Shown: positions 14,356-55,336, numbered from the stretch's first letter. The stretch is 64,000 nucleotides of DNA from Candidatus Minusculum obligatum (GCA_045401155.1 CP174360.1:419079-483078); one strand, 5' to 3'. Notes: generated by a model not told the origin, from the sequence alone. Numbers and translations: made by a program.

Positions 14356-14910
14356 TTGCTGTTTTATTCACAAAGTAATAACATTCAAAATATGGAATGT
14401 AGTAATTGCAAAACTCACATTGAACCGTCAGATAATTTTTGCACGAACTGCGGTACAGAAACTCCTCAGGTTTATTTTTATGGAAAAAATTGGAGAAAAC
14501 AACACTCAATTGTTTTAGTAAAAAGTAACAATTATGACATTTTTATATCTGATAAATCTTTATACATAATAAAATTTAAGGCTGTTATTGGGGCAGGAAT
14601 AGGTTTTCTCTTCGGGCTTATTATTCTATCAATCCTTGGTGCTTTTATTGGAGGTTTAATTGGAAATCGTTTTGATGAAAGAAAAATAAAAAGAACACGC
14701 TCTACTTGGATCACAGATAGCAATCGATTAATTTCTAAAAAATATAAAGAGTTTGTTTATATTCAAATTCCTTTTGAGGAAATTTCTCGTTCTTTAGAAA
14801 TTAAAGATAAGAAAATTCACATTTATACAAATAACAAGAAGTATACATTTTTAAAAAATAAAGAAGAGATTGCCCTTTTAAAGAAAAAGCTAAAAAAATA
14901 TGTTTTGTAA
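14356..14910 (+). CDS. zinc-ribbon (CxxC-x11-CxxC) single-pass membrane protein, hypothetical
   Basis: N-terminal CSNCKTHIEPSDNFCTNCG, one TM helix (GIGFLFGLIILSILGAFIGGLIG). Strongly AT-rich, Lys/Ile/Asn-rich gene. Confidence 0.4.
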   Translation: MLFYSQSNNIQNMECSNCKTHIEPSDNFCTNCGTETPQVYFYGKNWRKQHSIVLVKSNNYDIFISDKSLYIIKFKAVIGAGIGFLFGLIILSILGAFIGGLIGNRFDERKIKRTRSTWITDSNRLISKKYKEFVYIQIPFEEISRSLEIKDKKIHIYTNNKKYTFLKNKEEIALLKKKLKKYVL

Positions 14911-15457
14911 AAAATGCGGAAAGGAAATTTTAGAAAGTAATGTAAACAAAACCTGTCTTTCTTGTGAAAAAAATATACTTGAAGATAAGAAAAAGGATTT
15001 AAGAGAAAAATGGGGCCTTGGAAAATGGACTTTTATTGTAATAGTTATTCTTATTCTTTTGTGCATTAGTATATTTTTTTCAATAATAAGAAGTGAAATT
15101 GAATATCAGAATGAAGTTGACTCTAGTTTTTCATCACAACTTTTTATGGAAAATTTGGCGAAAGATATTCAAAGCGGTTATGGAAAACTCCCCGTAGAAA
15201 TTAATGACTTTACAACACTGGATAAAATTACAGGAGAATCTCAAAAAATTATATATTCATATACTCTTTTTGGTGTTTCCCATATAAACAACGATGAGGC
15301 TTTGGAGATTAAAAAAGAATTGACCCAAAATCTTTGTTCTCTAGAAGATGTTCAGATTTTTATAGATGGAGAAGTTGTTTTTGAATACAATTACTACAAT
15401 GATTCATCTTTTTTATTAAAAACAATATCAGTAAATTTTAAAGATGACTGCACTTAA
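14900..15457 (+). CDS. zinc-ribbon single-pass membrane protein, hypothetical
   Basis: N-terminal CKKCGKEILESNVNKTCLSCEKN, one TM helix. The start overlaps the stop of the upstream gene (coupled). AT-rich. Confidence 0.4.
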   Translation: MFCKKCGKEILESNVNKTCLSCEKNILEDKKKDLREKWGLGKWTFIVIVILILLCISIFFSIIRSEIEYQNEVDSSFSSQLFMENLAKDIQSGYGKLPVEINDFTTLDKITGESQKIIYSYTLFGVSHINNDEALEIKKELTQNLCSLEDVQIFIDGEVVFEYNYYNDSSFLLKTISVNFKDDCT

Positions 15458-19422: not shown

Positions 19423-20649
19423 TTATGAGGCATTCACAGAAACAGTGATTTTCTCAGTATCTGTTGGGAAATTACTGCGCCAAAATGGTCGCAAAATAAG
19501 CTCTGCAGTATCAATTCCTGGGATATTGCTTAGCACGGTCTCAGCCGCATCACGGCTTTTTCCTGCAATCTCAGTCTTGATTTGATCTGCTGATACCTTC
19601 CAAACAATGTTTACACTTCCTTCAACACTTACAGTTAACTCATCCGCACTTACAAGCTCTCCTGCAGATGGAAGGTTGCTGACCATAAGTGTATTGGTAG
19701 ATCCAATAGTCACATTATCGTCGTCATAGCTTGCGATTGTCTTCTCTGCAATTGCTTTAGCAAGAAGGTCTGTTGGGAATACAAGGGCTACAGCGGTAGC
19801 CTTCTCTCGAAGTACTGCAGTACTTCCCTCACCTTCTCCATTTGATAGAGACTCTGGAATAAATGCTACAGAGTCACCAAGAAGTGTGAATCCACTTGGG
19901 ATCTGATCTGCAATCGTATCCATAAGATCATCCTTTAGCGCAGCTTGCATAGAGATACGTGTATTTGCTGCCTTTTCTTCACTTACCACTGGTCGATTTC
20001 CAATAAATCCTCCAGACATTGGTGTTTTTGCCTTTGCGTACAAACTTTCAAACTGTGGGGATCCTGCAAGACCTGGGATAGTGAAGTCTACAAGCCCTAC
20101 ATTGTAGTCAGCTCCTGCTTCATCAGCGTAGATAGTTACTTCTACAGTTCCTGGCTTTCCATCCTTCATTCCAGGAATCTCAACTGGCTCTTTTACACGG
20201 AAGATCTTTCCATCTGGAGATTCAAAGCGTGTATTAGTTACCCATCGCTGCGGTGTACTTGAGAACTCGTTGTATACAATCACGGTTCCGCTCGCTCGCT
20301 CGCTCACATTCTCGCTTCCATCTGCTGGTACCGACTGTGTTGCCACCTTTTCAATACGAACAATTTCAAATGGAAGAGGATCAGTTTCTGTACTTGTTGC
20401 AAACAAGTCAGTATTTACTGGCACCTCTCGCTCAAGTGGGTGTACTACAACCTTTGCACCTGCAAACATTGCCGCTACACCAACTCCCACGATAAGAGCT
20501 GCTACGATTATTAAAATTAGAGTGAGTAATGGTCGTCCTTTCTTACCATTATTAGACGGCTCATAGGTATTTACCGCAGGAACCGCTTCATCCTCTACCA
20601 TCCGACGACGTGATGGTGGAATGATATCTTCTACACGTTTTGCGCCCAT
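19423..20649 (-). CDS. hypothetical membrane-anchored protein (cytoplasmic N-tail, 1 TM, large extracytoplasmic domain)
   Basis: TM segment LLTLILIIVAALIVGVGVAAMFAGA; no known motif. Contains a (CGCT)4 tetranucleotide repeat at 20289..20304. Confidence 0.5.
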   Translation of the reverse strand: MGAKRVEDIIPPSRRRMVEDEAVPAVNTYEPSNNGKKGRPLLTLILIIVAALIVGVGVAAMFAGAKVVVHPLEREVPVNTDLFATSTETDPLPFEIVRIEKVATQSVPADGSENVSERASGTVIVYNEFSSTPQRWVTNTRFESPDGKIFRVKEPVEIPGMKDGKPGTVEVTIYADEAGADYNVGLVDFTIPGLAGSPQFESLYAKAKTPMSGGFIGNRPVVSEEKAANTRISMQAALKDDLMDTIADQIPSGFTLLGDSVAFIPESLSNGEGEGSTAVLREKATAVALVFPTDLLAKAIAEKTIASYDDDNVTIGSTNTLMVSNLPSAGELVSADELTVSVEGSVNIVWKVSADQIKTEIAGKSRDAAETVLSNIPGIDTAELILRPFWRSNFPTDTEKITVSVNAS

Positions 20650-20673: not shown

Positions 20674-21069
20674 TTATGAAGCAAGACTTTGGTCTAGGAA
20701 ATCCTTAAGAGCTTTTAGATTCCTTGTCTCTTTATCATAGTGATATGTTGGGATTCCTATAGATTTCGCACTTTCCACCGCTTCAGCATTATGCTCAAAA
20801 TACACAACATCGTCTTTTGAAAGATTGAGATAATCTAACATACGAACAAAGTATTCGGGATCAGCTTTTGTTGGGTTTTGATCTAGACTAAATACTTCAT
20901 ACGGCATATTTACTATCCCGAGACTTTCTCTTTGTTCAGGATTTGCATTTGTAAGAATAATTTTTTGATTTTGATATGTTTCGAGTAAGTCATAAAGAGG
21001 TTTGTAAACTCCTTCACCTTTTATAAAAAATGTGTGGACTGCATCTACTAAAATTGTCTTCATACGCAC
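20674..21069 (-). CDS. HAD-like fold protein (degenerate motif I; possibly non-catalytic)
   Basis: ILVDAVHT in place of DxDxT, a downstream ILTNA and acidic motif IV-like region; 131 aa. Confidence 0.35.
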   Translation of the reverse strand: MRMKTILVDAVHTFFIKGEGVYKPLYDLLETYQNQKIILTNANPEQRESLGIVNMPYEVFSLDQNPTKADPEYFVRMLDYLNLSKDDVVYFEHNAEAVESAKSIGIPTYHYDKETRNLKALKDFLDQSLAS

Positions 21070-22232
21070 TTAATCAATATTCTTACTATAGAACAATGCG
21101 AGAAGCCCATGGAACAGGTCTTTTTCACTCTCTCCCGTATACACCACATGGTCTGTAAGGTGTTGAGGTTTAAGGGTAATTACCGTAAATGGCTGATCCC
21201 CAAGTCTAAGCGAGTGCACGTCCTGTCGTTTAAGAATTTCAGCAAAAATATCTCGACATGAGAAGTCTGCAAGAATAAAGAATGTCTGCGGAAGCGCATA
21301 CTTTCTTGAAAGGTCCGCCAGCGCTGAAACGATAGATCTAGCCCAATCATCTTTTGCAGTACGTTCTGCACTTTTTACTTCTTCAACAGTCTTTGGATGT
21401 AGTGCTCCTGCACTTACTAAATCATTAATCTCTTCTGCAGGTACCGAAGAGCATGCCCTACCAATTGCCCTTGTTACTGAGTGCACACCCTCTAGTGCAG
21501 TTGCAACTCCCGTGAGCACCCCTTTCTTCACCAAAAGCAGATCTGTTGCCTCTCCAGTTACTACACCCGCCAAGAAATCTGGCTCATGTGGGAATAAATC
21601 GCGAAGCACTACATAATTTAATGCAGGAGAGCTCCACACCTTCATTGATTTCTTATTAAATGTCTTTCCAAGATGTGTTGTTATCTTGTCATATACAGAA
21701 ATAGGCACTGCACTTCCAAGACCGAGCACACTCATACGCTGCGCGCGCTTCCCAATTGGACTTTGTGTCTGATATCCATTAATAAGCACCTCAATAATAG
21801 AATGGTCTACAAGTACGGTGGTTGCAGGATCAATACCAAGCGCTCCCTCTATTTTCTTTTGTGCCTCTTCAAGATCTCCTTGGGTAATACGCTTACCTTT
21901 TTCAAATTTCTGCGTATGAGAGCGCAAGATAGTGCGCTGCCATGGAGAACCAATAGAAACCACCACATCATCTACATGACGGACACCACAAGATCTTGCA
22001 AGTGCTGCGGATCCCTCTGATTCAAATTTAGCGGTTAGCTCTTGAAGTCCTTTGTCTAAAAGACGAAGAAGTGTCTTGGGAGAGGCGTCCTCATGCACCG
22101 GAATTGGAATGCGGGTACTGTAGCAAATATACGGCGCTCTCTTTTTTGAAATACCGCATACGCTCCTCCAATTGAGTAACTCCCGACATCAATAAGAGCT
22201 ACGGTTGTGATATTACTTCGGCCAAATGGCAT
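21070..22232 (-). pseudogene. actin-like (ASKHA) ATPase, FtsA/PilM-like, disrupted by a 1-nt frameshift in an A6/T6 tract
   Basis: The main frame (21070..22098) has the phosphate-2/adenosine motif VVTGEATDLLLV plus STRIPIP..ASPKTLLRLLDKGLQEL. The phosphate-1 motif (MPFGRSNITTVALIDVGSYSIGGAYAVFQK) lies upstream in another frame, 22232..22059. The two frames join across the homopolymer at 22142..22147. Confidence 0.5.
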
Positions 22233-22259
22233 GATGTCTCTATTGTAGTATAGGTTCGC

Positions 22260-24098
22260 CTATTCTAGAACCGCTTTTATACGACGAATACCTGCAGAAC
22301 TTGCCTCTTCTTTTTTAATACGAAAATGTCCAAGCTCACTTGTATTTTCTACGTGTGGTCCACCACAAAATTCTAGAGAATAATCTCCAACTGAATATAC
22401 GCGCACCACATCCCCATACTTTTCTTCAAATAGACCGATAGCTCCACGCTTCTTAGCATCCTCAAGAGAAATATCTTCGTGTGTTACGGGCAGATTCTTA
22501 GCAATTTGCTCATTTACAATCTTTTCCACTTCAGCTTTTTCCTCATCCGTCATCTTCCGATCAAATGAGAAATCAAAACGAAGTCGCTCAGGAGTAATGT
22601 TACTTCCCTTTTGCATCACATCTTCTCCAAGTACGTCTTTGAGCGCTCGATGCAGCAGGTGTGTAGCAGTATGATACTTCACACTCATCTCACTGTTATC
22701 TGCCAGTCCTCCCTTAAATTTCTTCTCAGCTCCTTCACGAGACTTTGCCTGATGCTCTTCAAAGGCTTTTTTATATCCTTCTACATCCACATTCTTTCCT
22801 TCCTCTTGCGCAAGCTCAAGCGTAAGCTCAAGTGGGAACCCGTATGATGTAAAGAGTACAAATGCATCCTCTCCAGATATATCTCCCTCAATCTTAGAGA
22901 ACTGCTTCATTCCACCCTTAAGTGTCTTCCTAAACTTCTCTTCCTCTTCTTTAATTGCATTTAAAATTACATCCTCTTTATCCCCAAGGTTTGTGTAGTG
23001 ATCTTTATATACATCGATATATGGCTTAGCTAGCTCATGTAGGCTCCCTTCTGTAATAGAGAGTTTGTCTGCGTGTCGCACCGCTCGACGAATAAGACGT
23101 CGAAGAATATATCCCGCTTCTGTATTACTTGGCATCACGCCATCTCCGATCATAAATGTAGCTCCACGAAGATGATCCATAATCACACGATACGAAACCT
23201 CATTTCCTTCATAGGAAGTGCCTGAAAGCTCAGCAATCTTCTCCCGAGTTGGTGTAAATACATCAATCTTAAATACGTCAGGATCCCCAAGCGTTGCAGC
23301 AGTAATACGCTCAAGTCCTCCTCCAAAATCTACGTTCTTGCGAGGAAGTTTTCCAAAACCACCCTCTTCCTTAATGAATTCCATAAATACAGAGTTTCCA
23401 ATCTCAATGAAGCGACCTGAGTCACTATTTGGATGCTCCTCCATATCTTTATATGCAGGATCTGCAAACTCTTCTCCAAAATCATAAAACACCTCTGAAT
23501 CTGGCCCTCCCGGCTCGCCAACAGGCATGTTGTTTGGTGCTCCTGAACGACTCCACCAATTCTTCTTTGCATCGTAATAGAAGATACGTCCTCCCTGCAT
23601 GCCTTTTTTATATCCATCTTCCTCAGATCCAATATGGATATCTTTTGCTTCAATTCCTTTTGATGCAAAAAGCTCTTTCCAAATAGCTACAGACTCCTCA
23701 TCTTTATCAATACCATCTCCTCCCTCATATACCGTTACGTAAATACGATTTGGATCAAGTCCAAGCTCATCAGTCAAAAATGCAAAAAACCATGGCAGCT
23801 GCTCTTTCTTGAAGTAACTACCTAGAGACCAATTTCCAAGCATTTCAAAGAATGTGGTGTGTCGATTATCTCCAACCTCTTCGATATCATCCGCACGAAA
23901 ACACTTCTGCGAATCAGTTAGACGGTCCCCTTGTGGATGCTCTTTCCCAAGCAGATATGGCACAAGCGGCTGCATACCAGAACTTGTGAAGAGTGTTGTT
24001 GGATCATTTTCTGGAGTAATAGAAGCAGATGGAATAACCACATGATCTCTCTCACGTAAAAATTGTAGGTATTTTTCTCGTACTTCTTTTACTGTCAT
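22260..24098 (-). CDS. alaS: alanine--tRNA ligase, short form (catalytic + tRNA-recognition + editing domains, no C-Ala domain)
   Basis: Class II core (FTSSGMQP, GNWSLGSYFK), editing-domain HxxxH (HTATHLLH) and CGGPHV; 612 aa versus about 870 for canonical AlaRS. Confidence 0.93.
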   Translation of the reverse strand: MTVKEVREKYLQFLRERDHVVIPSASITPENDPTTLFTSSGMQPLVPYLLGKEHPQGDRLTDSQKCFRADDIEEVGDNRHTTFFEMLGNWSLGSYFKKEQLPWFFAFLTDELGLDPNRIYVTVYEGGDGIDKDEESVAIWKELFASKGIEAKDIHIGSEEDGYKKGMQGGRIFYYDAKKNWWSRSGAPNNMPVGEPGGPDSEVFYDFGEEFADPAYKDMEEHPNSDSGRFIEIGNSVFMEFIKEEGGFGKLPRKNVDFGGGLERITAATLGDPDVFKIDVFTPTREKIAELSGTSYEGNEVSYRVIMDHLRGATFMIGDGVMPSNTEAGYILRRLIRRAVRHADKLSITEGSLHELAKPYIDVYKDHYTNLGDKEDVILNAIKEEEEKFRKTLKGGMKQFSKIEGDISGEDAFVLFTSYGFPLELTLELAQEEGKNVDVEGYKKAFEEHQAKSREGAEKKFKGGLADNSEMSVKYHTATHLLHRALKDVLGEDVMQKGSNITPERLRFDFSFDRKMTDEEKAEVEKIVNEQIAKNLPVTHEDISLEDAKKRGAIGLFEEKYGDVVRVYSVGDYSLEFCGGPHVENTSELGHFRIKKEEASSAGIRRIKAVLE

Positions 24099-27377: not shown

Positions 27378-27869
27378 TTACGCTGGTGAAGGCACTTTTT
27401 TCTTGAACGTTGGTGGATTGTTTCTGCAGACAAGGAAGCCGTAGAGGGCCCAGACCGAGATGAAGCCAATTGGATCCATAAAGTCCGAAACACTTCTGTC
27501 TGAAGATATAAAAATTCTTATTGTCTCCAGCAAAATAAACACGGGATAGCAAAGACGTACGAAACGATCTATCTCGCTTGCTCTACTCTTCGGCGCAAAA
27601 CCTCCCTTTTCTTCTCTTTCAGATCTGCTCACTATGTGATTGATGAGGTTTGGTCCCCATATCACAAAAAGTGCACACACAATAAAAGAAACAATTGGGA
27701 TGCCTCCTTCTCGCAAAATGAGATATGTGTGGAACATTAACCCTGCGCCAAGAAGGCAGAAGGAAGCGACCAAGAAAAAAGTCTTGGTCACATCCATATA
27801 CTTATTTCCCCAGTCAACGATGCGCTGGAAAAAGTTGTCGATGATCCAATGATCAATTTTTTCAAACAT
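27378..27869 (-). CDS. hypothetical integral membrane protein (4 TM)
   Basis: Hydrophobic helices; no known motif. Confidence 0.4.
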   Translation of the reverse strand: MFEKIDHWIIDNFFQRIVDWGNKYMDVTKTFFLVASFCLLGAGLMFHTYLILREGGIPIVSFIVCALFVIWGPNLINHIVSRSEREEKGGFAPKSRASEIDRFVRLCYPVFILLETIRIFISSDRSVSDFMDPIGFISVWALYGFLVCRNNPPTFKKKVPSPA

Positions 27870-27921
27870 TTACTTCTCCAGTTCTGTTCTAGGAAAAACA
27901 TGCCTGAGAAAATACCTAATG

Positions 27922-28188
27922 TCAAATCGCACCCTCTTCTTCTAAAAGCTTTCGTTTCATTTCAGGACCTCCTCTGTTATATGCACCAATTTTCCCACCT
28001 GCATTAATTACTCGATGACAAGGAATAGTGGGATCATAATTATTTTTCATAATAGTCCCTACTGCTCGAGCTGCTCCTGGAGACCCTGCAACTTTTGCCA
28101 CCTCACCATATGAAAGTGTCTTTCCCTTTTTAATATTACGCACTACGTCTTGTACACGTTTCGTAAAATTACTTTTTGATTTTTCCAT
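27922..28188 (-). CDS. ogt: methylated-DNA--protein-cysteine methyltransferase (C-terminal DNA-binding/active-site domain only)
   Basis: Active-site PCHRVI and YGEVA helix-turn-helix region. The start is placed at the MEKSKSN Met; the longer track ORF overlaps the upstream nuclease gene. Confidence 0.8.
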   Translation of the reverse strand: MEKSKSNFTKRVQDVVRNIKKGKTLSYGEVAKVAGSPGAARAVGTIMKNNYDPTIPCHRVINAGGKIGAYNRGGPEMKRKLLEEEGAI

Positions 28189-28947: not shown

Positions 28948-29787
28948 CTATATAGGCATAGTACTAAGACCTTTCGCTTCCTGCAAAATTTCACTTACAT
29001 GATCCCTTGAAAGCCCTAAATCTATAAGTGCCTCCTTATTCCTCTCAAGTTCTTCACAGAGAATGATTCCTTTTGTAATAAGAGATTGTTTTTGAGACCG
29101 AGAAAGTGTTGTAAGTGCTGTGATTGGATAGACATCATACTCTGTAATTAGATCCAGCAGTGAGTCTTTTTCTGGGTATCGCCATCCGAGCATATCAAGC
29201 CCCACACACGAAGCATATTCAACCGCATTTTTTGTAAATTTTGTATTTGTAAGAAGAAGAGGCCTGTTTACTGGGCAAGACTTTGGGTCTTCATCCCGCT
29301 TTGCAAAAATATCTTCCATACGCGCCTGCACATACAGTGCCGTACGTACATTTGTCTTAAATCCTGGAGAGTTATGGAACTTAACCTCAATTGCCACACA
29401 TTCACCATCTTTTGTAGCAACAACATCAAGCTCATGATTTATACACTTACCTGGCACCACCTGACGAAGTCGCACTTTGTACCCCATTTTCTTAAAGAGT
29501 GCTGCAACAAAATCTTCAAACGGAAATCCTGTAGGACCCAAATCAAAAAGAGCCCTCCGCAAAGAATACCTTGCAGCAGTAGGACGATGCTCTCGACGAA
29601 GCTCTCTAAATGCAGTTTTGTAAATCTCACTTGTAGAGACACCAGAGACAGCGGTTTCAATCACATCAGTGGTAATTTGCTCTGCGATTTCCCTCTTAGC
29701 TCCTGCCCGAACAAGAGAATCTATAAGTTTTTCCTCACGAAAGATTTCGCTTGTACCATCAGCTTTTGTTACGTAGAAATTTTGCAT
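28948..29787 (-). CDS. ATP-cone domain fused to an Mrr-like restriction endonuclease (PD-(D/E)xK) domain
   Basis: N-terminal ATP-cone (VTKADGTSEIFREEKLIDSL...), central ELDVVATKDGECVAIEVK catalytic core, C-terminal helical domain. Confidence 0.7.
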   Translation of the reverse strand: MQNFYVTKADGTSEIFREEKLIDSLVRAGAKREIAEQITTDVIETAVSGVSTSEIYKTAFRELRREHRPTAARYSLRRALFDLGPTGFPFEDFVAALFKKMGYKVRLRQVVPGKCINHELDVVATKDGECVAIEVKFHNSPGFKTNVRTALYVQARMEDIFAKRDEDPKSCPVNRPLLLTNTKFTKNAVEYASCVGLDMLGWRYPEKDSLLDLITEYDVYPITALTTLSRSQKQSLITKGIILCEELERNKEALIDLGLSRDHVSEILQEAKGLSTMPI

Positions 29788-33571: not shown

Positions 33572-34609
33572 TTAAACTAGTGAATAGGTATTGTCACTAT
33601 TTCGCTTGAATACCTTTCGGTCATTTAGATTTACAAGAATTGTATTGTCTTTTACGTATCGCTCCTTCTTTACGCGATCAATAATTTCTTCTCGAGTAAG
33701 AGGGCCCTCTTTCTCAATAAGCTCCTTAATCACATCCCGTACAACTCCTGTCTTGTATCCCCACTCCTTAAGCGCATATAGTCCACGTCCAACAAGTACA
33801 AATCGCTTATCCTTAATAAGTTCGTTGTGACATGTTGCAACGTGCGCTCGCTTTCCAAATAGCTCAGCGATAGAATCCGCAACCTCGCTAAAGTGCATAG
33901 GTGATCCATGTCGTTTCATTGCAAGGTATGCAAAGTCTCGAATTCCCTTAGCACGAATAGATGAAGAACTCACACGTCCCCACTCTCCAAGAGGATTTCG
34001 ATCTAGGTTCTTAAACATAGAAAGCCATCGTCGAAGCATTTCCTCCTTCTTGTACTCCTCATTTAGATCCTGAAGATTCTCCAAGAACCGATCAATAAGA
34101 TCTGCTTCAGAAAGAATCTCCTCATCTGGAATTGCTTTATACAGAGTCTTAAGCGCTCCTTCAATAGTTCCTGCAACATTTTCATCTACAGACCATCGAG
34201 CTTTAAACTCTGGAGTTTCTTTTGACTGTACAAAAAACTCTCCAAGTACAAGTAGAAAATGTACATGGTTTTGGATACTTGCTGTTGATCCTACAGCATC
34301 TAGGAGATCATTCTCAGACACGATGCATCCCATATCTCGGATAACACCCTCAAGCTCAGTAAATACTGCTTCCTGTTTCTTAATCTCTTCTCCCTTTCGG
34401 ATTGCATCAAGACTATGGTTCTCAATCTGACGTACACGTTCTCGTGTAATCCCATACTCTTGTCCAATAGCCTCAAGCGTCGCTTGCTTAGTGCTCTTTC
34501 CTAATCCAAAACGAAGCGTCAAAACTTCTTTTGAGCGCTCTGGAAGCCCAGACAGAAGTTGGCGAACCACCTTCTTTGGGTCGTGTGCAAGCTGTACCTT
34601 ACTTGTCAT
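33572..34609 (-). CDS. sigma-70 region-4 (HTH) domain protein with C-terminal winged-helix; transcription factor-like
   Basis: LSGLPERSKEVLTLRFGL...TLEAIGQEYGITRERVRQIENHSL is a sigma-70 region 4.2 signature at the N-terminus. No region 2 is present. Confidence 0.55.
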   Translation of the reverse strand: MTSKVQLAHDPKKVVRQLLSGLPERSKEVLTLRFGLGKSTKQATLEAIGQEYGITRERVRQIENHSLDAIRKGEEIKKQEAVFTELEGVIRDMGCIVSENDLLDAVGSTASIQNHVHFLLVLGEFFVQSKETPEFKARWSVDENVAGTIEGALKTLYKAIPDEEILSEADLIDRFLENLQDLNEEYKKEEMLRRWLSMFKNLDRNPLGEWGRVSSSSIRAKGIRDFAYLAMKRHGSPMHFSEVADSIAELFGKRAHVATCHNELIKDKRFVLVGRGLYALKEWGYKTGVVRDVIKELIEKEGPLTREEIIDRVKKERYVKDNTILVNLNDRKVFKRNSDNTYSLV

Positions 34610-50094: not shown

Positions 50095-50880
50095 CTAATG
50101 TGGCTCTGCCACGGCTATCTTTATGAAAAATAGCGTCAGCAATGCAAAGATTGCTGCCTGAATGAATCCCACAAAGAGCTCAAATCCCAGAAGTGGAACG
50201 GGAACCAAAAGTGGAATAAATGAAAATACCACCAAAATAAGTACCTTCCCTGCAAAAATGTTTCCGAATAGACGGAATGAGAAGGACACAAGTCGTGCTA
50301 ATTCACTAAAAAGTTCAATGATGCCGACCGCAAATGCTAGCGGCGACTTAAAATTAACAAATTTTCCAGCATATCTCAAAGCACCAAGGGTGATAATTCC
50401 TGCAATCTCAATTGCAAAAAGTGCAATTACAGAAAGTGCCAGCGTTACATTTAAATCTGTATTAACTGGATAGAAAAATGGCAGGAAGTGATCATGATCC
50501 ATAATTCCAATTGCACCAATGATTGGAAGGAGTCCAAACCAATTTGCGGTAAGTACAAAAAGAAAAATGGTCATCACTAGTGGAAAGACCCACTTAATCA
50601 ACTTTTCGTTGTACTCAAGTGTCTCTCGTACAAATGAATACGGAAACTCAATCATTGCCTCAACAGCAGCCTGCGTCTTGCCCGGGACAAGCTTTAGATT
50701 CCGCCCAAGAAAGTACGCTCCGATAATAAGAAGAAGACTAACCACCACGGTGGTGATCAATGTATTAGTGATCGGCAAACCAAAAAGGTGCGTGAGCACC
50801 GTTGGTTCAAGGTGAATACTAATTCCCTCTTTCATGTTGGTGGCAGTGTAGCATGTGAGAGGCATATGAGAAGTGGACAA
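50095..50880 (-). CDS. atpB: F0F1 ATP synthase subunit a
   Basis: Five TM helices with the conserved Arg in the penultimate helix (SFSFRLFGNIFAG). The annotated start abuts a terminator hairpin, so the true start may be an internal Met. Confidence 0.88.
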   Translation of the reverse strand: MSTSHMPLTCYTATNMKEGISIHLEPTVLTHLFGLPITNTLITTVVVSLLLIIGAYFLGRNLKLVPGKTQAAVEAMIEFPYSFVRETLEYNEKLIKWVFPLVMTIFLFVLTANWFGLLPIIGAIGIMDHDHFLPFFYPVNTDLNVTLALSVIALFAIEIAGIITLGALRYAGKFVNFKSPLAFAVGIIELFSELARLVSFSFRLFGNIFAGKVLILVVFSFIPLLVPVPLLGFELFVGFIQAAIFALLTLFFIKIAVAEPH

Positions 50881-50886
50881 AGTATG

Positions 50887-50915
50887 AAAAAACCTCGGTA
50901 ATTCCGAGGTTTTTT
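50887..50915. terminator. bidirectional intrinsic terminator between the small DUF378-like gene and atpB
   Basis: AAAAAACCTCGG-TAAT-TCCGAGGTTTTTT: perfect stem with A- and T-runs. Confidence 0.6.
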
Positions 50916-50937
50916 CTAGGAAATATAGTGAGAATCA

Positions 50938-51132
50938 CTACTTCTTCATAAACATATTGAAGAGCATATATAGTGCTGATATACCTACCAAAATGTAGAT
51001 AATATTTGCAATATTTCCTGCACCAAAGATAGCTTGTACTAAATCAAGCTGTGCAATACCAACCAGTCCCCAATTAATTCCTCCGACAAATACAAGGATA
51101 TATGCAATCCAATCAAGTGCATTCATTCGCAT
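50938..51132 (-). CDS. small two-TM membrane protein (DUF378-like)
   Basis: 64 aa, GINWGLVG...ILVGISALY pattern. Occupies the position often held by atpI/atpZ. Confidence 0.45.
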   Translation of the reverse strand: MRMNALDWIAYILVFVGGINWGLVGIAQLDLVQAIFGAGNIANIIYILVGISALYMLFNMFMKK

Positions 51133-54219: not shown

Positions 54220-54819
54220 TTAACTAAGACTCTTAAGATCTTCAATAATCTCTGAAAACTCATTCTCATTGAAGTGTCCTCTGTCTTTAAATGCTCGTAT
54301 ACGAGCATTTGGTAACAACTCTTGATATCTTGATAAGTGAGAGAACGGAACAACCTGATCATCCTCGCTATGATACAGATAAATATCTGACACCTGTTCA
54401 CGAAGCAATGAAAGGTCATTCTCAATATTAAAGTCCACATATGGATCTTTTTCTATTGAATTAAATGGTGCAGCAACTAAAAACAGTGCTTTAATTTCTT
54501 TTTGATATTTTTCTTCAGAAAGATACTTTGCAAGAAATATTGCACCTAGAGAATGCCCAATACACACCACCTTCTCATCAAGAAGTGGAACTATCTTTTC
54601 AAACATTATCTTCCACTCAGAATATTTTGCATTATCTCTGCAAGGCATTGATGGCATGAGAATATCGTAACCATCTCCTAAAACAGATTGCAGATGCATC
54701 TTCCAACCACCGGGCCGTAATCTAGTCAGTGTTATTTCTTTCTCTTTGAGTGCTTGGAGGTATCCATCATGAGTTTCGTATGCACTTCCTCCACTAATAA
54801 CAACAATTTGTTTTTTCAT
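54220..54819 (-). CDS. alpha/beta hydrolase, YdeN/RBBP9-like serine hydrolase
   Basis: Nucleophile elbow GHSLGA with downstream Asp/His. The start is placed at MKKQIVVISGG, because the longer track ORF (to 54885) would read through a GC-rich terminator hairpin. Confidence 0.7.
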   Translation of the reverse strand: MKKQIVVISGGSAYETHDGYLQALKEKEITLTRLRPGGWKMHLQSVLGDGYDILMPSMPCRDNAKYSEWKIMFEKIVPLLDEKVVCIGHSLGAIFLAKYLSEEKYQKEIKALFLVAAPFNSIEKDPYVDFNIENDLSLLREQVSDIYLYHSEDDQVVPFSHLSRYQELLPNARIRAFKDRGHFNENEFSEIIEDLKSLS

Positions 54820-54832
54820 ATTAAAAGTATAA

Positions 54833-55005
54833 CAAAAAAGGAAAAGCCCCTCCTGAGCACCATGAAGGCGGGAGGGGCTGACCATAGCCAGACATTGTCT
54901 GACCGTATTTGCCCCTGGGTCTCTAGAGCTCTTGCTCTTTGTAGGCGTGCACTTACGCCTCGTTGTTCGGTCGAAGACCTACTCCCAGGGAAGAAAACTG
55001 ATCCA
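54833..55005 (-). ncRNA. candidate structured 5' leader (riboswitch/attenuator) or small RNA ending in an intrinsic terminator
   Basis: A roughly 170-nt GC-rich island in an AT-rich intergenic region. Predicted hairpins: GGUC-UUCG-GACC, GGCGU-AAGUGC-ACGCC, CAGAC-AAU-GUCUG, a CCCUGGG...CCCAGGG closing helix, then GCCCCUCC-N15-GGAGGGGC plus UUUUCCUUUUUU 13 nt before the hydrolase ATG. A perfect TATAAT lies just upstream at 55012..55017. Confidence 0.35.
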
Positions 55006-55031
55006 AAATAAATTATATTGAATAATAATTT

Positions 55032-55089
55032 TTTGTCAAAAAGAAAAACCAGCAGTCGCTGGAATTTCTTTTTTTGGATAAATCCAAAA
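55032..55089. repeat. 58-bp direct repeat copy 2 (terminator for tRNA-Ala)
   Basis: Same sequence as 54132..54189 with tt to aa in the palindrome loop and t to c at the 5' edge. Immediately 3' of tRNA-Ala. Confidence 0.85.
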
Positions 55090-55092
55090 TTG

Positions 55093-55166
55093 TGGACTCG
55101 AGAGGAATCGAACCCCCGACCTCCTCAGTGCAAATGAGGCGCTCTAGCCAACTGAGCTACGAGCCC
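55093..55166 (-). tRNA. tRNA-Ala (anticodon UGC)
   Basis: Manual fold: acceptor GGGCUCG/CGAGUCC with the G3:U70 Ala identity pair, D-arm GCUC-AGUUGGCUA-GAGC, anticodon stem CCUCA/UGAGG with loop UUUGCAC, T-loop GGUUCGAUUCC, discriminator A. CCA is not encoded. Confidence 0.9.
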
Positions 55167-55336
55167 ATAAATGCGCATACGCGCAAAATGAGCAGCGGGA
55201 GGCGGAGCAAGGACGAACGTCCTACCTGAACGCTCCGCCTCCCCGTTCGCTGGAGTACGGCTCATGAACGAACCAATGGGGACGGTGCCCACTGCCTGCT
55301 CGGAACTAAGCGAACGTAAGTAGGAGAATACAAGAC

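Follow-up and report, generated by a model that had tools for sequence, protein, structure and literature searches.

A 64,000-nucleotide (nt) stretch of the Candidatus Minusculum obligatum genome (GCA_045401155.1, CP174360.1:419079-483078), called the window below, raises a simple question on its minus strand at positions 21070..22232: is this a single gene whose reading frame has been broken, or a short gene preceded by an unrelated open reading frame (ORF)? The first-pass annotation had described here an actin-like ATPase of the FtsA/PilM type, interrupted by a frameshift in a run of six A. According to our in silico analysis, the locus is one gene for a predicted 387-amino-acid (aa) cytoplasmic actin-fold protein of the FtsA/PilM type, and its frame is broken by one lost base.

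Reading frames of the locus and its orthologues

The minus strand from 20900 to 22500 was read and translated in three frames, and the gene was found in two of them. The frame opened by ATG 22232 encodes MPFGRSNITTVALIDVGSYSIGGAYAVFQK and then runs through unrelated residues to a stop at 22056, for a total of 58 aa. Its first 30 codons (22143..22232, minus strand) translate into strands beta1 and beta2 of subdomain 1A and the phosphate-1 motif ALIDVGSYSIGGAY, which carries Asp15. Its out-of-frame tail (22056..22142, minus strand) reads RERRIFATVPAFQFRCMRTPLPRHFFVF before the stop and is a frameshift by-product rather than a conserved peptide. The main frame, -1 relative to that of ATG 22232, is open from 22188 to a TAA stop at 21070..21072, and the two open frames overlap by 130 nt. 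Three-frame translation thus bore out the earlier claim that the phosphate-1 motif lies in one frame and the remainder of the protein in another.

The first start codon of the main frame is GTG 22098, which gives 342 aa; no ATG, GTG or TTG lies upstream of it in this frame, and no purine-rich Shine-Dalgarno sequence could be read from the minus strand ahead of it. This 342-aa ORF (21070..22098, minus strand) is the one annotated publicly, as a 'hypothetical protein' (XKT75027.1, ACJKSS_02570), and it is devoid of beta1-beta3 and the phosphate-1 loop. The exact 58-aa sequence had no match in a collection of 15 billion proteins.

On the coding strand, an A6 run (T6 on the plus strand) occupies 22142..22147, exactly where the first-pass annotation had placed it. 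Adding one base at this run yields a protein of 387 aa, as that annotation had estimated, and the repaired protein aligns through the junction with its orthologues: the junction reads FQKKRAPYICYSTR, against FQKNRAPFICYSTR in the closest orthologue. Codons 31-387 and the stop, in the -1 frame (21070..22142, minus strand), supply beta3, an SHS2-type subdomain 1C (about residues 95-177), the phosphate-2 motif VVTGEATD, subdomains 2A and 2B and a C-terminal helix.

A search of a protein collection with the repaired protein retrieved 14 full-length relatives of 387-389 aa, each with 51-89% identity and 96-100% query coverage. All 14 close orthologues are intact and aligned across the junction. At that point FQK-K-RAPYICYSTR aligns with FQK-N-RAPFICYSTR of the closest relative, with the invariant A33-P34 directly after the junction, and the first 30 codons share 97% identity with the closest orthologue. 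A family hidden Markov model (HMM) of 65 members, from which the window sequence was excluded, was then tested against the 336 six-frame ORFs of the window. It matched the long ORF at E=2.6e-117 and, independently, the short open segment upstream of it, taken by itself, at E=2.5e-9, while no paralogue was detected elsewhere among these ORFs.

The first-pass annotation had named orthologues that naturally start at the downstream GTG as evidence against a broken gene. We observed the opposite: the N-terminal segment is present in all 14 close orthologues, and in 147 of the best 150 family representatives the alignment starts no later than profile position 14, and the three exceptions are short fragments.

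The site of the lost base was then compared between relatives. The closest of them, a Logan contig with 89% protein identity (L001), has the DNA sequence TTTCAAAAAAACCGT (TTT CAA AAA AAC CGT), with an A7 run in frame, and the window reads TTT CAA AAA AGA GAG at the same place. The junction (22138..22148, minus strand; C-AAAAAA-GAGA on the coding strand) has one base fewer than the orthologues, and the change is most simply read as A7 to A6. Three other relatives (L002, L004 and L005) read AAT AAA GGT GAA there and a fourth (L003) reads GAA AAA AGT, all in frame; the A-run at the junction is absent from the other orthologues or is an in-frame A6. Because the orthologue alignment only limits the lost base to codons 30-32, that is, to the 3' end of the A-run or the next two or three bases, the A-run is the most likely but unproven site of the lesion. 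The earlier statement that the frames meet inside the run is therefore right as to the most likely site, and too precise as to where the base was lost. The frameshift is unique to the present assembly, with no other family member frameshifted, either among the 14 close orthologues or at the five orthologous loci compared at the DNA level.

Origin of the break

The first-pass annotation had left two causes side by side, a sequencing or assembly indel and a genuine inactivation. On balance, we somewhat favor the former, as a homopolymer miscall that persisted in the consensus sequence of a 579-kb, single-contig metagenome-assembled genome (MAG), in which case the real organism probably has an intact gene. 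An A7 in the organism would have become an A6 in the consensus, at or beside the run between codons 30 and 32. In closed long-read MAGs, the errors that persist are chiefly homopolymer indels, and the pseudogenes that these create present the same picture as this locus, a single-base change at an A/T run in an intact conserved gene for which a relative is one base longer. The gene lies on the record's only contig (578,798 bp), and the protein accessions are XKT75027.1 and XKT75025.1. We take accessions of the XKT type and a one-contig genome to point to a closed long-read MAG, the sequencing technology being our assumption.

The ratio of nonsynonymous to synonymous substitution rates (dN/dS) points in the same direction. 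Measured against the closest relative, the whole gene gives 0.07 and its 30 codons 5' of the break give 0.03; the gene of the membrane partner described below gives 0.10. No second lesion was seen in the FtsA-like gene. With so low a dN/dS and no other defect, any inactivation would be extremely recent or not real. In addition, family size and conserved gene order make this gene look like a core gene of the approximately 579-kb genome, so that a fixed null allele is unlikely.

Several observations weigh against a miscall. The sequencing technology is itself assumed. In 17 long intact genes of the window, 37 A/T runs of at least 6 bases are undamaged, and no other broken gene was found in the 64 kb, as judged from the dense gene map, a staggered-ORF scan and the full-length housekeeping genes. 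The break is thus isolated, whereas errors are pervasive in unpolished nanopore assemblies. Since the assembly is otherwise clean at homopolymers, consensus errors must be rare here, which leaves room for a genuine mutation. Moreover, no second assembly of the species was found: exact-anchor, variable-gap DNA patterns matched nothing in genome or metagenome contig collections, and the protein collection contained no intact protein more than 89% identical.

A genuine and very recent loss of function, with a one-base deletion in the A7 tract as the majority allele of the sampled population, is a serious but less probable explanation. The locus would then be a newly formed pseudogene, or it would show an accidental slipped-strand polymorphism in its 'off' state, and no functional protein would be made. 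The rest of the window is free of frameshifts despite 120 A/T runs of at least 6 bases, which makes the consensus look accurate; deletions in A7 tracts are generally known as the commonest spontaneous indel; and a lineage-specific HAD-like insertion directly downstream shows recent change at the locus. However, the family is very widely conserved, the gene order is kept, and the low dN/dS, a mark of strong purifying selection, includes the orphaned 30 codons of a gene that bears a single lesion. Core genes are unlikely to be dispensable in a small streamlined genome, and the A-tract, not being conserved among relatives, does not qualify as an evolved contingency locus.

If the break is genuine, the 58-aa product consists of beta1-beta2 followed by 28 out-of-frame residues, and the 342-aa product starts past beta3. 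No functional protein is expected from them, because beta3 (residues 35-43) is encoded by neither product; complementation between the two as a split protein was rejected on the same ground.

We consider it very unlikely that the A6 is both genuine and useful, as a switch acting on a hitherto undescribed membrane module spread across Patescibacteria, either by slipped-strand on/off variation or by low-level -1 slippage aided by the rare AGA codon. In this module, the FtsA/PilM-like scaffold would hold the DIIPPSRR tail of the bitopic partner described below. The bacterium is ultra-small and probably host-associated, and such a switch would tune functions of its surface or of its division.

Programmed or tolerated recoding of a genuine A6 has hardly more than a trace of plausibility. 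It would involve a -1 slip of tRNA-Lys on A-AAA with the rare AGA in the A site, or transcriptional slippage, and would produce FQK-K-RAP. The shift is indeed a -1 shift on an A-run, where tRNA-Lys is generally known to be slip-prone, and the next zero-frame codon, AGA, represents only 35 of the 446 Arg codons in the 17 long genes of the window. A GGAGGAG lies 15 nt upstream of the A-run, but its bases specify the conserved Gly-Gly of the phosphate-1 loop, and it is farther upstream than known stimulators. Moreover, neither a frameshift nor a conserved slippery heptamer occurs in any orthologue, the window reads CAA-AAA-AGA in the zero frame and not X-XXY-YYZ, and the 111 nt of downstream RNA fold no better than shuffled sequence (z = -0.67). 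A run of six A is also too short for efficient transcriptional slippage, which is generally known for runs of about nine or more.

The comparison with frameshifting of the dnaX type (A-AAA-AAG) leads to the same assessment. The direction of the shift and the decoding of the A-run by tRNA-Lys are shared, but the heptamer of the window is in the wrong phase, no stem-loop follows it and the site is conserved in no orthologue. In addition, frameshifting of the dnaX type yields an alternative product, whereas the shift in the window would be needed for the only functional product. As far as these comparisons reach, a conserved programmed frameshift is excluded and the break is specific to the present assembly.

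Finally, we give practically no credence to the annotated 342-aa ORF as the natural gene with an unrelated 58-aa ORF upstream: it is the only protein listed by the NCBI annotation, but a natural start at GTG 22098 is refuted by the starts of the orthologues and by the independent HMM match of the upstream segment, and such a protein would be missing three core strands and the near-invariant Asp15.

Whatever its cause, the frameshift itself is ordinary, a lineage-specific one-base homopolymer indel. It is mainly a matter of quality control, the break being hidden in the public record by the truncated 'hypothetical protein' XKT75027.1. Its wider interest lies only in the gene family, FtsA/PilM-like, deeply conserved in its place beside the infA/alpha ribosomal operon and always paired with a bitopic membrane partner.

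Fold, motifs and family of the repaired protein

The repaired protein had no Pfam or NCBIfam match even at E<=10. A 15-sequence profile searched against the PDB sequences returned nothing, and FtsA was reached only with the wider 65-sequence family profile, which matched T. maritima FtsA at E=1.7e-5 and PilM at E=0.024. Among the 65 members, 18 give weak, sub-threshold matches to Pfam FtsA (PF14450; best 4.6e-7) and one gives a PilM_2 match (E=0.049). The label 'FtsA/PilM-like' therefore holds as a statement on fold and remote homology, given the profile match to FtsA and the motifs, but not as membership of a curated family.

An AlphaFold2 model was built from the 15-sequence alignment (mean pLDDT 76). 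It contains a strand-helix-strand-strand unit at residues 100-177, which we take to be an SHS2-type subdomain 1C, the feature that distinguishes FtsA and PilM from other actins. The phosphate-1 motif of the family is [LIV]-D-I-G-S, with Asp15 kept in 63 of the 65 members, and the phosphate-2 motif is D-[VI]-x-G-E-x-T-D, with the Thr in 59 and the last Asp in 53 of them. These conserved motifs fit an ASKHA nucleotide site with putative ATP binding and hydrolysis. The general signature of actin/ASKHA ATPases, with which the family agrees, is a pair of RNase-H-like domains that carry phosphate-1 (DxGxxx), phosphate-2 (DxGGxTxD-like) and adenosine motifs. The first Asp of phosphate-2 (position 224, at about 21561..21563 of the window) is present in 43 of the 65 members and is Ile or Val in the clade of the window protein (FLAGVVTGEATD); its loss may reflect altered or lost ATPase chemistry in this sub-lineage.

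At the C terminus, a conserved hydrophobic helix (D-x-F-L-x-x-L-A-L-F) is present and the protein ends five residues past it; instead of targeting the membrane, this last helix may simply complete the core of the fold. Within the 1C unit or next to it, an invariant SPW (96-98), an invariant NGY (152-154) and a well-conserved GK[RK]A (161-164) are placed in a way that is consistent with a conserved binding surface.

Several features are common to the window protein and FtsA (E. coli 7Q6D, T. maritima 1E4F), namely the actin/ASKHA fold, the SHS2-type 1C that replaces 1B, and conserved phosphate-1 and phosphate-2 motifs. FtsA is also the only solved family reached by the sequence profile. However, identity to FtsA is about 12%, and the window protein matches none of the FtsA (PF14450), SHS2_FTSA (PF02491) and NCBIfam FtsA models. 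FtsA, which binds the C-terminal peptide of FtsZ on its subdomain 2B, also has a flexible linker and an amphipathic membrane-targeting helix, neither of which is evident here. In this last respect, the window protein resembles PilM (T. thermophilus 2YCH, M. xanthus 3JC8), which is cytoplasmic with no obvious membrane anchor of its own.

With clusters defined at 50% identity, a profile search of 1.84 billion representative proteins gave 2,216 representative clusters at E<=1e-3, of which 1,618 pass E<=1e-10. Where a source is named, the FtsA-like gene comes from Candidatus Wolfebacteria or from Patescibacteria group bacteria (UBA2103, UBA3533). No description of the family was found in the literature on UBA2103, on baseplate J in Patescibacteria or on FtsA-like proteins in the Candidate Phyla Radiation. 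Judged from sequence, this is a large unnamed family of Patescibacteria (Paceibacteria/Wolfebacteria), an apparently undescribed variant of the theme in which FtsA or PilM is paired with a bitopic partner.

Gene neighbourhood and other features of the window

The FtsA-like gene lies in a conserved order: alaS, the FtsA-like gene, a gene for a bitopic membrane protein (405-434 aa), then infA-rpmJ-rpsM-rpsK-rpsD-rpoA-rplQ-rplM-rpsI. The same order is present in a 72%-identical relative (L002) and in two distant genomes (L006 and L007), where the partner is only 37-38% identical. In these two genomes, the genes upstream of the partner are family members by profile comparison, with probabilities of 99.7 and 99.9.

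The upstream neighbour in the window is alaS (22260..24098, minus strand; 612 aa), which forms the conserved 5' flank; at the orthologous loci, genes of 577-651 aa with tRNA-synt_2c and tRNA_SAD domains are found directly upstream. Only these two domains are recorded for the alaS product of the window, which appears to be without the long C-terminal region of a typical bacterial alanyl-tRNA synthetase.

The partner gene (19423..20649, minus strand) encodes a bitopic membrane protein of 408 aa. An invariant N-terminal cytoplasmic motif, D-I-I-P-P-S-R-R (residues 8-15), is followed by a variable Pro-rich linker, one transmembrane helix (residues 40-61) and an ectodomain for which the matches are baseplate-J wedge proteins and the GlxA barrel, with neither PilN nor PilO among them. 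We detected 306 homologues, and members of the partner family are also labelled Pacebacteria/Paceibacterota. DIIPPSRR may resemble the N-terminal motif of PilN, although searching the literature for the motif as text gave no match.

In the FtsA-FtsN and PilM-PilN pairs, a short conserved cytoplasmic tail of the bitopic protein binds the cleft between subdomains 1A and 1C (PMC7613929; PMC5805733). The pairing of the window protein with a bitopic protein that has a short cytoplasmic tail recalls FtsA with FtsN (PMC7613929), and its position directly upstream of a gene for a bitopic protein with an N-terminal motif, a linker and a transmembrane helix recalls PilM-PilN (PMC5805733; PMC7613929). 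Both likenesses have limits. FtsA adjoins ftsZ/ftsQ in the dcw cluster, whereas the gene of the window, as in L002, L006 and L007, lies between alaS and the partner, ahead of infA and the ribosomal genes. PilM is encoded in pilMNOPQ or pilMNO loci, whereas no pilO, pilP, pilQ, pilB or pilC was found near the gene in the window or at the orthologous loci. The ectodomains differ as well, a SPOR domain in FtsN and a ferredoxin-like domain in PilN and PilO as opposed to the beta-rich baseplate-J/GlxA-like ectodomain of the partner of about 408 aa.

By analogy with these pairs, the FtsA-like protein would bind ATP and dock at the membrane, as PilM does with PilN or FtsA with FtsN. The invariant DIIPPSRR tail of the partner would be held in the cleft between subdomains 1A and 1C, and docking would couple a cytoplasmic scaffold to the extracellular baseplate-J-like domain. 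We propose tethering through this tail because the neighbour of an actin fold that contains 1C is here a bitopic protein whose cytoplasmic tail is short and conserved. Against it stand the analogical nature of the mechanism and an ectodomain that is not PilN-like. Should the pair work in the manner of PilM-PilN or FtsA-FtsN, the docking principle would have a third, lineage-specific example, in bacteria with poorly understood division and surface biology.

Between the FtsA-like gene and the partner gene lies a HAD-like ORF of 131 aa (20674..21069, minus strand; probable start ATG 21063), which is outside the conserved module and gives weak Pfam HAD matches (E about 1e-3). It is a clean insertion of about 395 nt beside conserved intergenic sequence and is absent from L001 (89% identical), L002, L006 and L007. 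Its GTG abuts the stop codon of the FtsA-like gene, and in its HAD motif I (VDAVHT) the expected second Asp seems to have been substituted.

Elsewhere in the window, the overlapping ORFs 14356..14910 and 14900..15457 (plus strand; 184 and 185 aa) were considered as another homopolymer frameshift, given their 11-nt overlap at an A7 run, and rejected: they are two zinc-ribbon paralogues in tandem with a normal ATG/stop overlap. A CxxC motif is present at each start, and the zinc ribbon is confirmed by Pfam for the first. Three further candidates of the staggered-ORF scan (27381-27961, 54819-55124 and 50822-51043) were rejected as well, with no domain split across frames.

Around the first of these, 27381..28007, about 500 nt of extra sequence separates an MGMT-like gene from a uracil-DNA glycosylase (UDG) gene, which adjoin each other in L002. 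Its coding content is ambiguous, being either a 163-codon minus-strand open frame or two plus-strand ORFs of 70 and 52 aa, none with a Pfam match. The open frame of the UDG ORF reaches about 80 codons upstream of the UDG domain.

Two other minus-strand genes encode unusual domain combinations. The product of 28948..29787 (279 aa) joins an ATP-cone, an Mrr-type restriction-endonuclease-like domain and an AF1548-like C-terminal domain, and that of 33572..34609 (345 aa) joins sigma-70 region 4 and a HARE-HTH domain. Searches for tRNAs and Rfam families gave a single match in the 64 kb, a tRNA-Ala (TGC) at 55093..55166 (minus strand), and a 55-aa ORF that overlaps it (55125..55292) is probably spurious.
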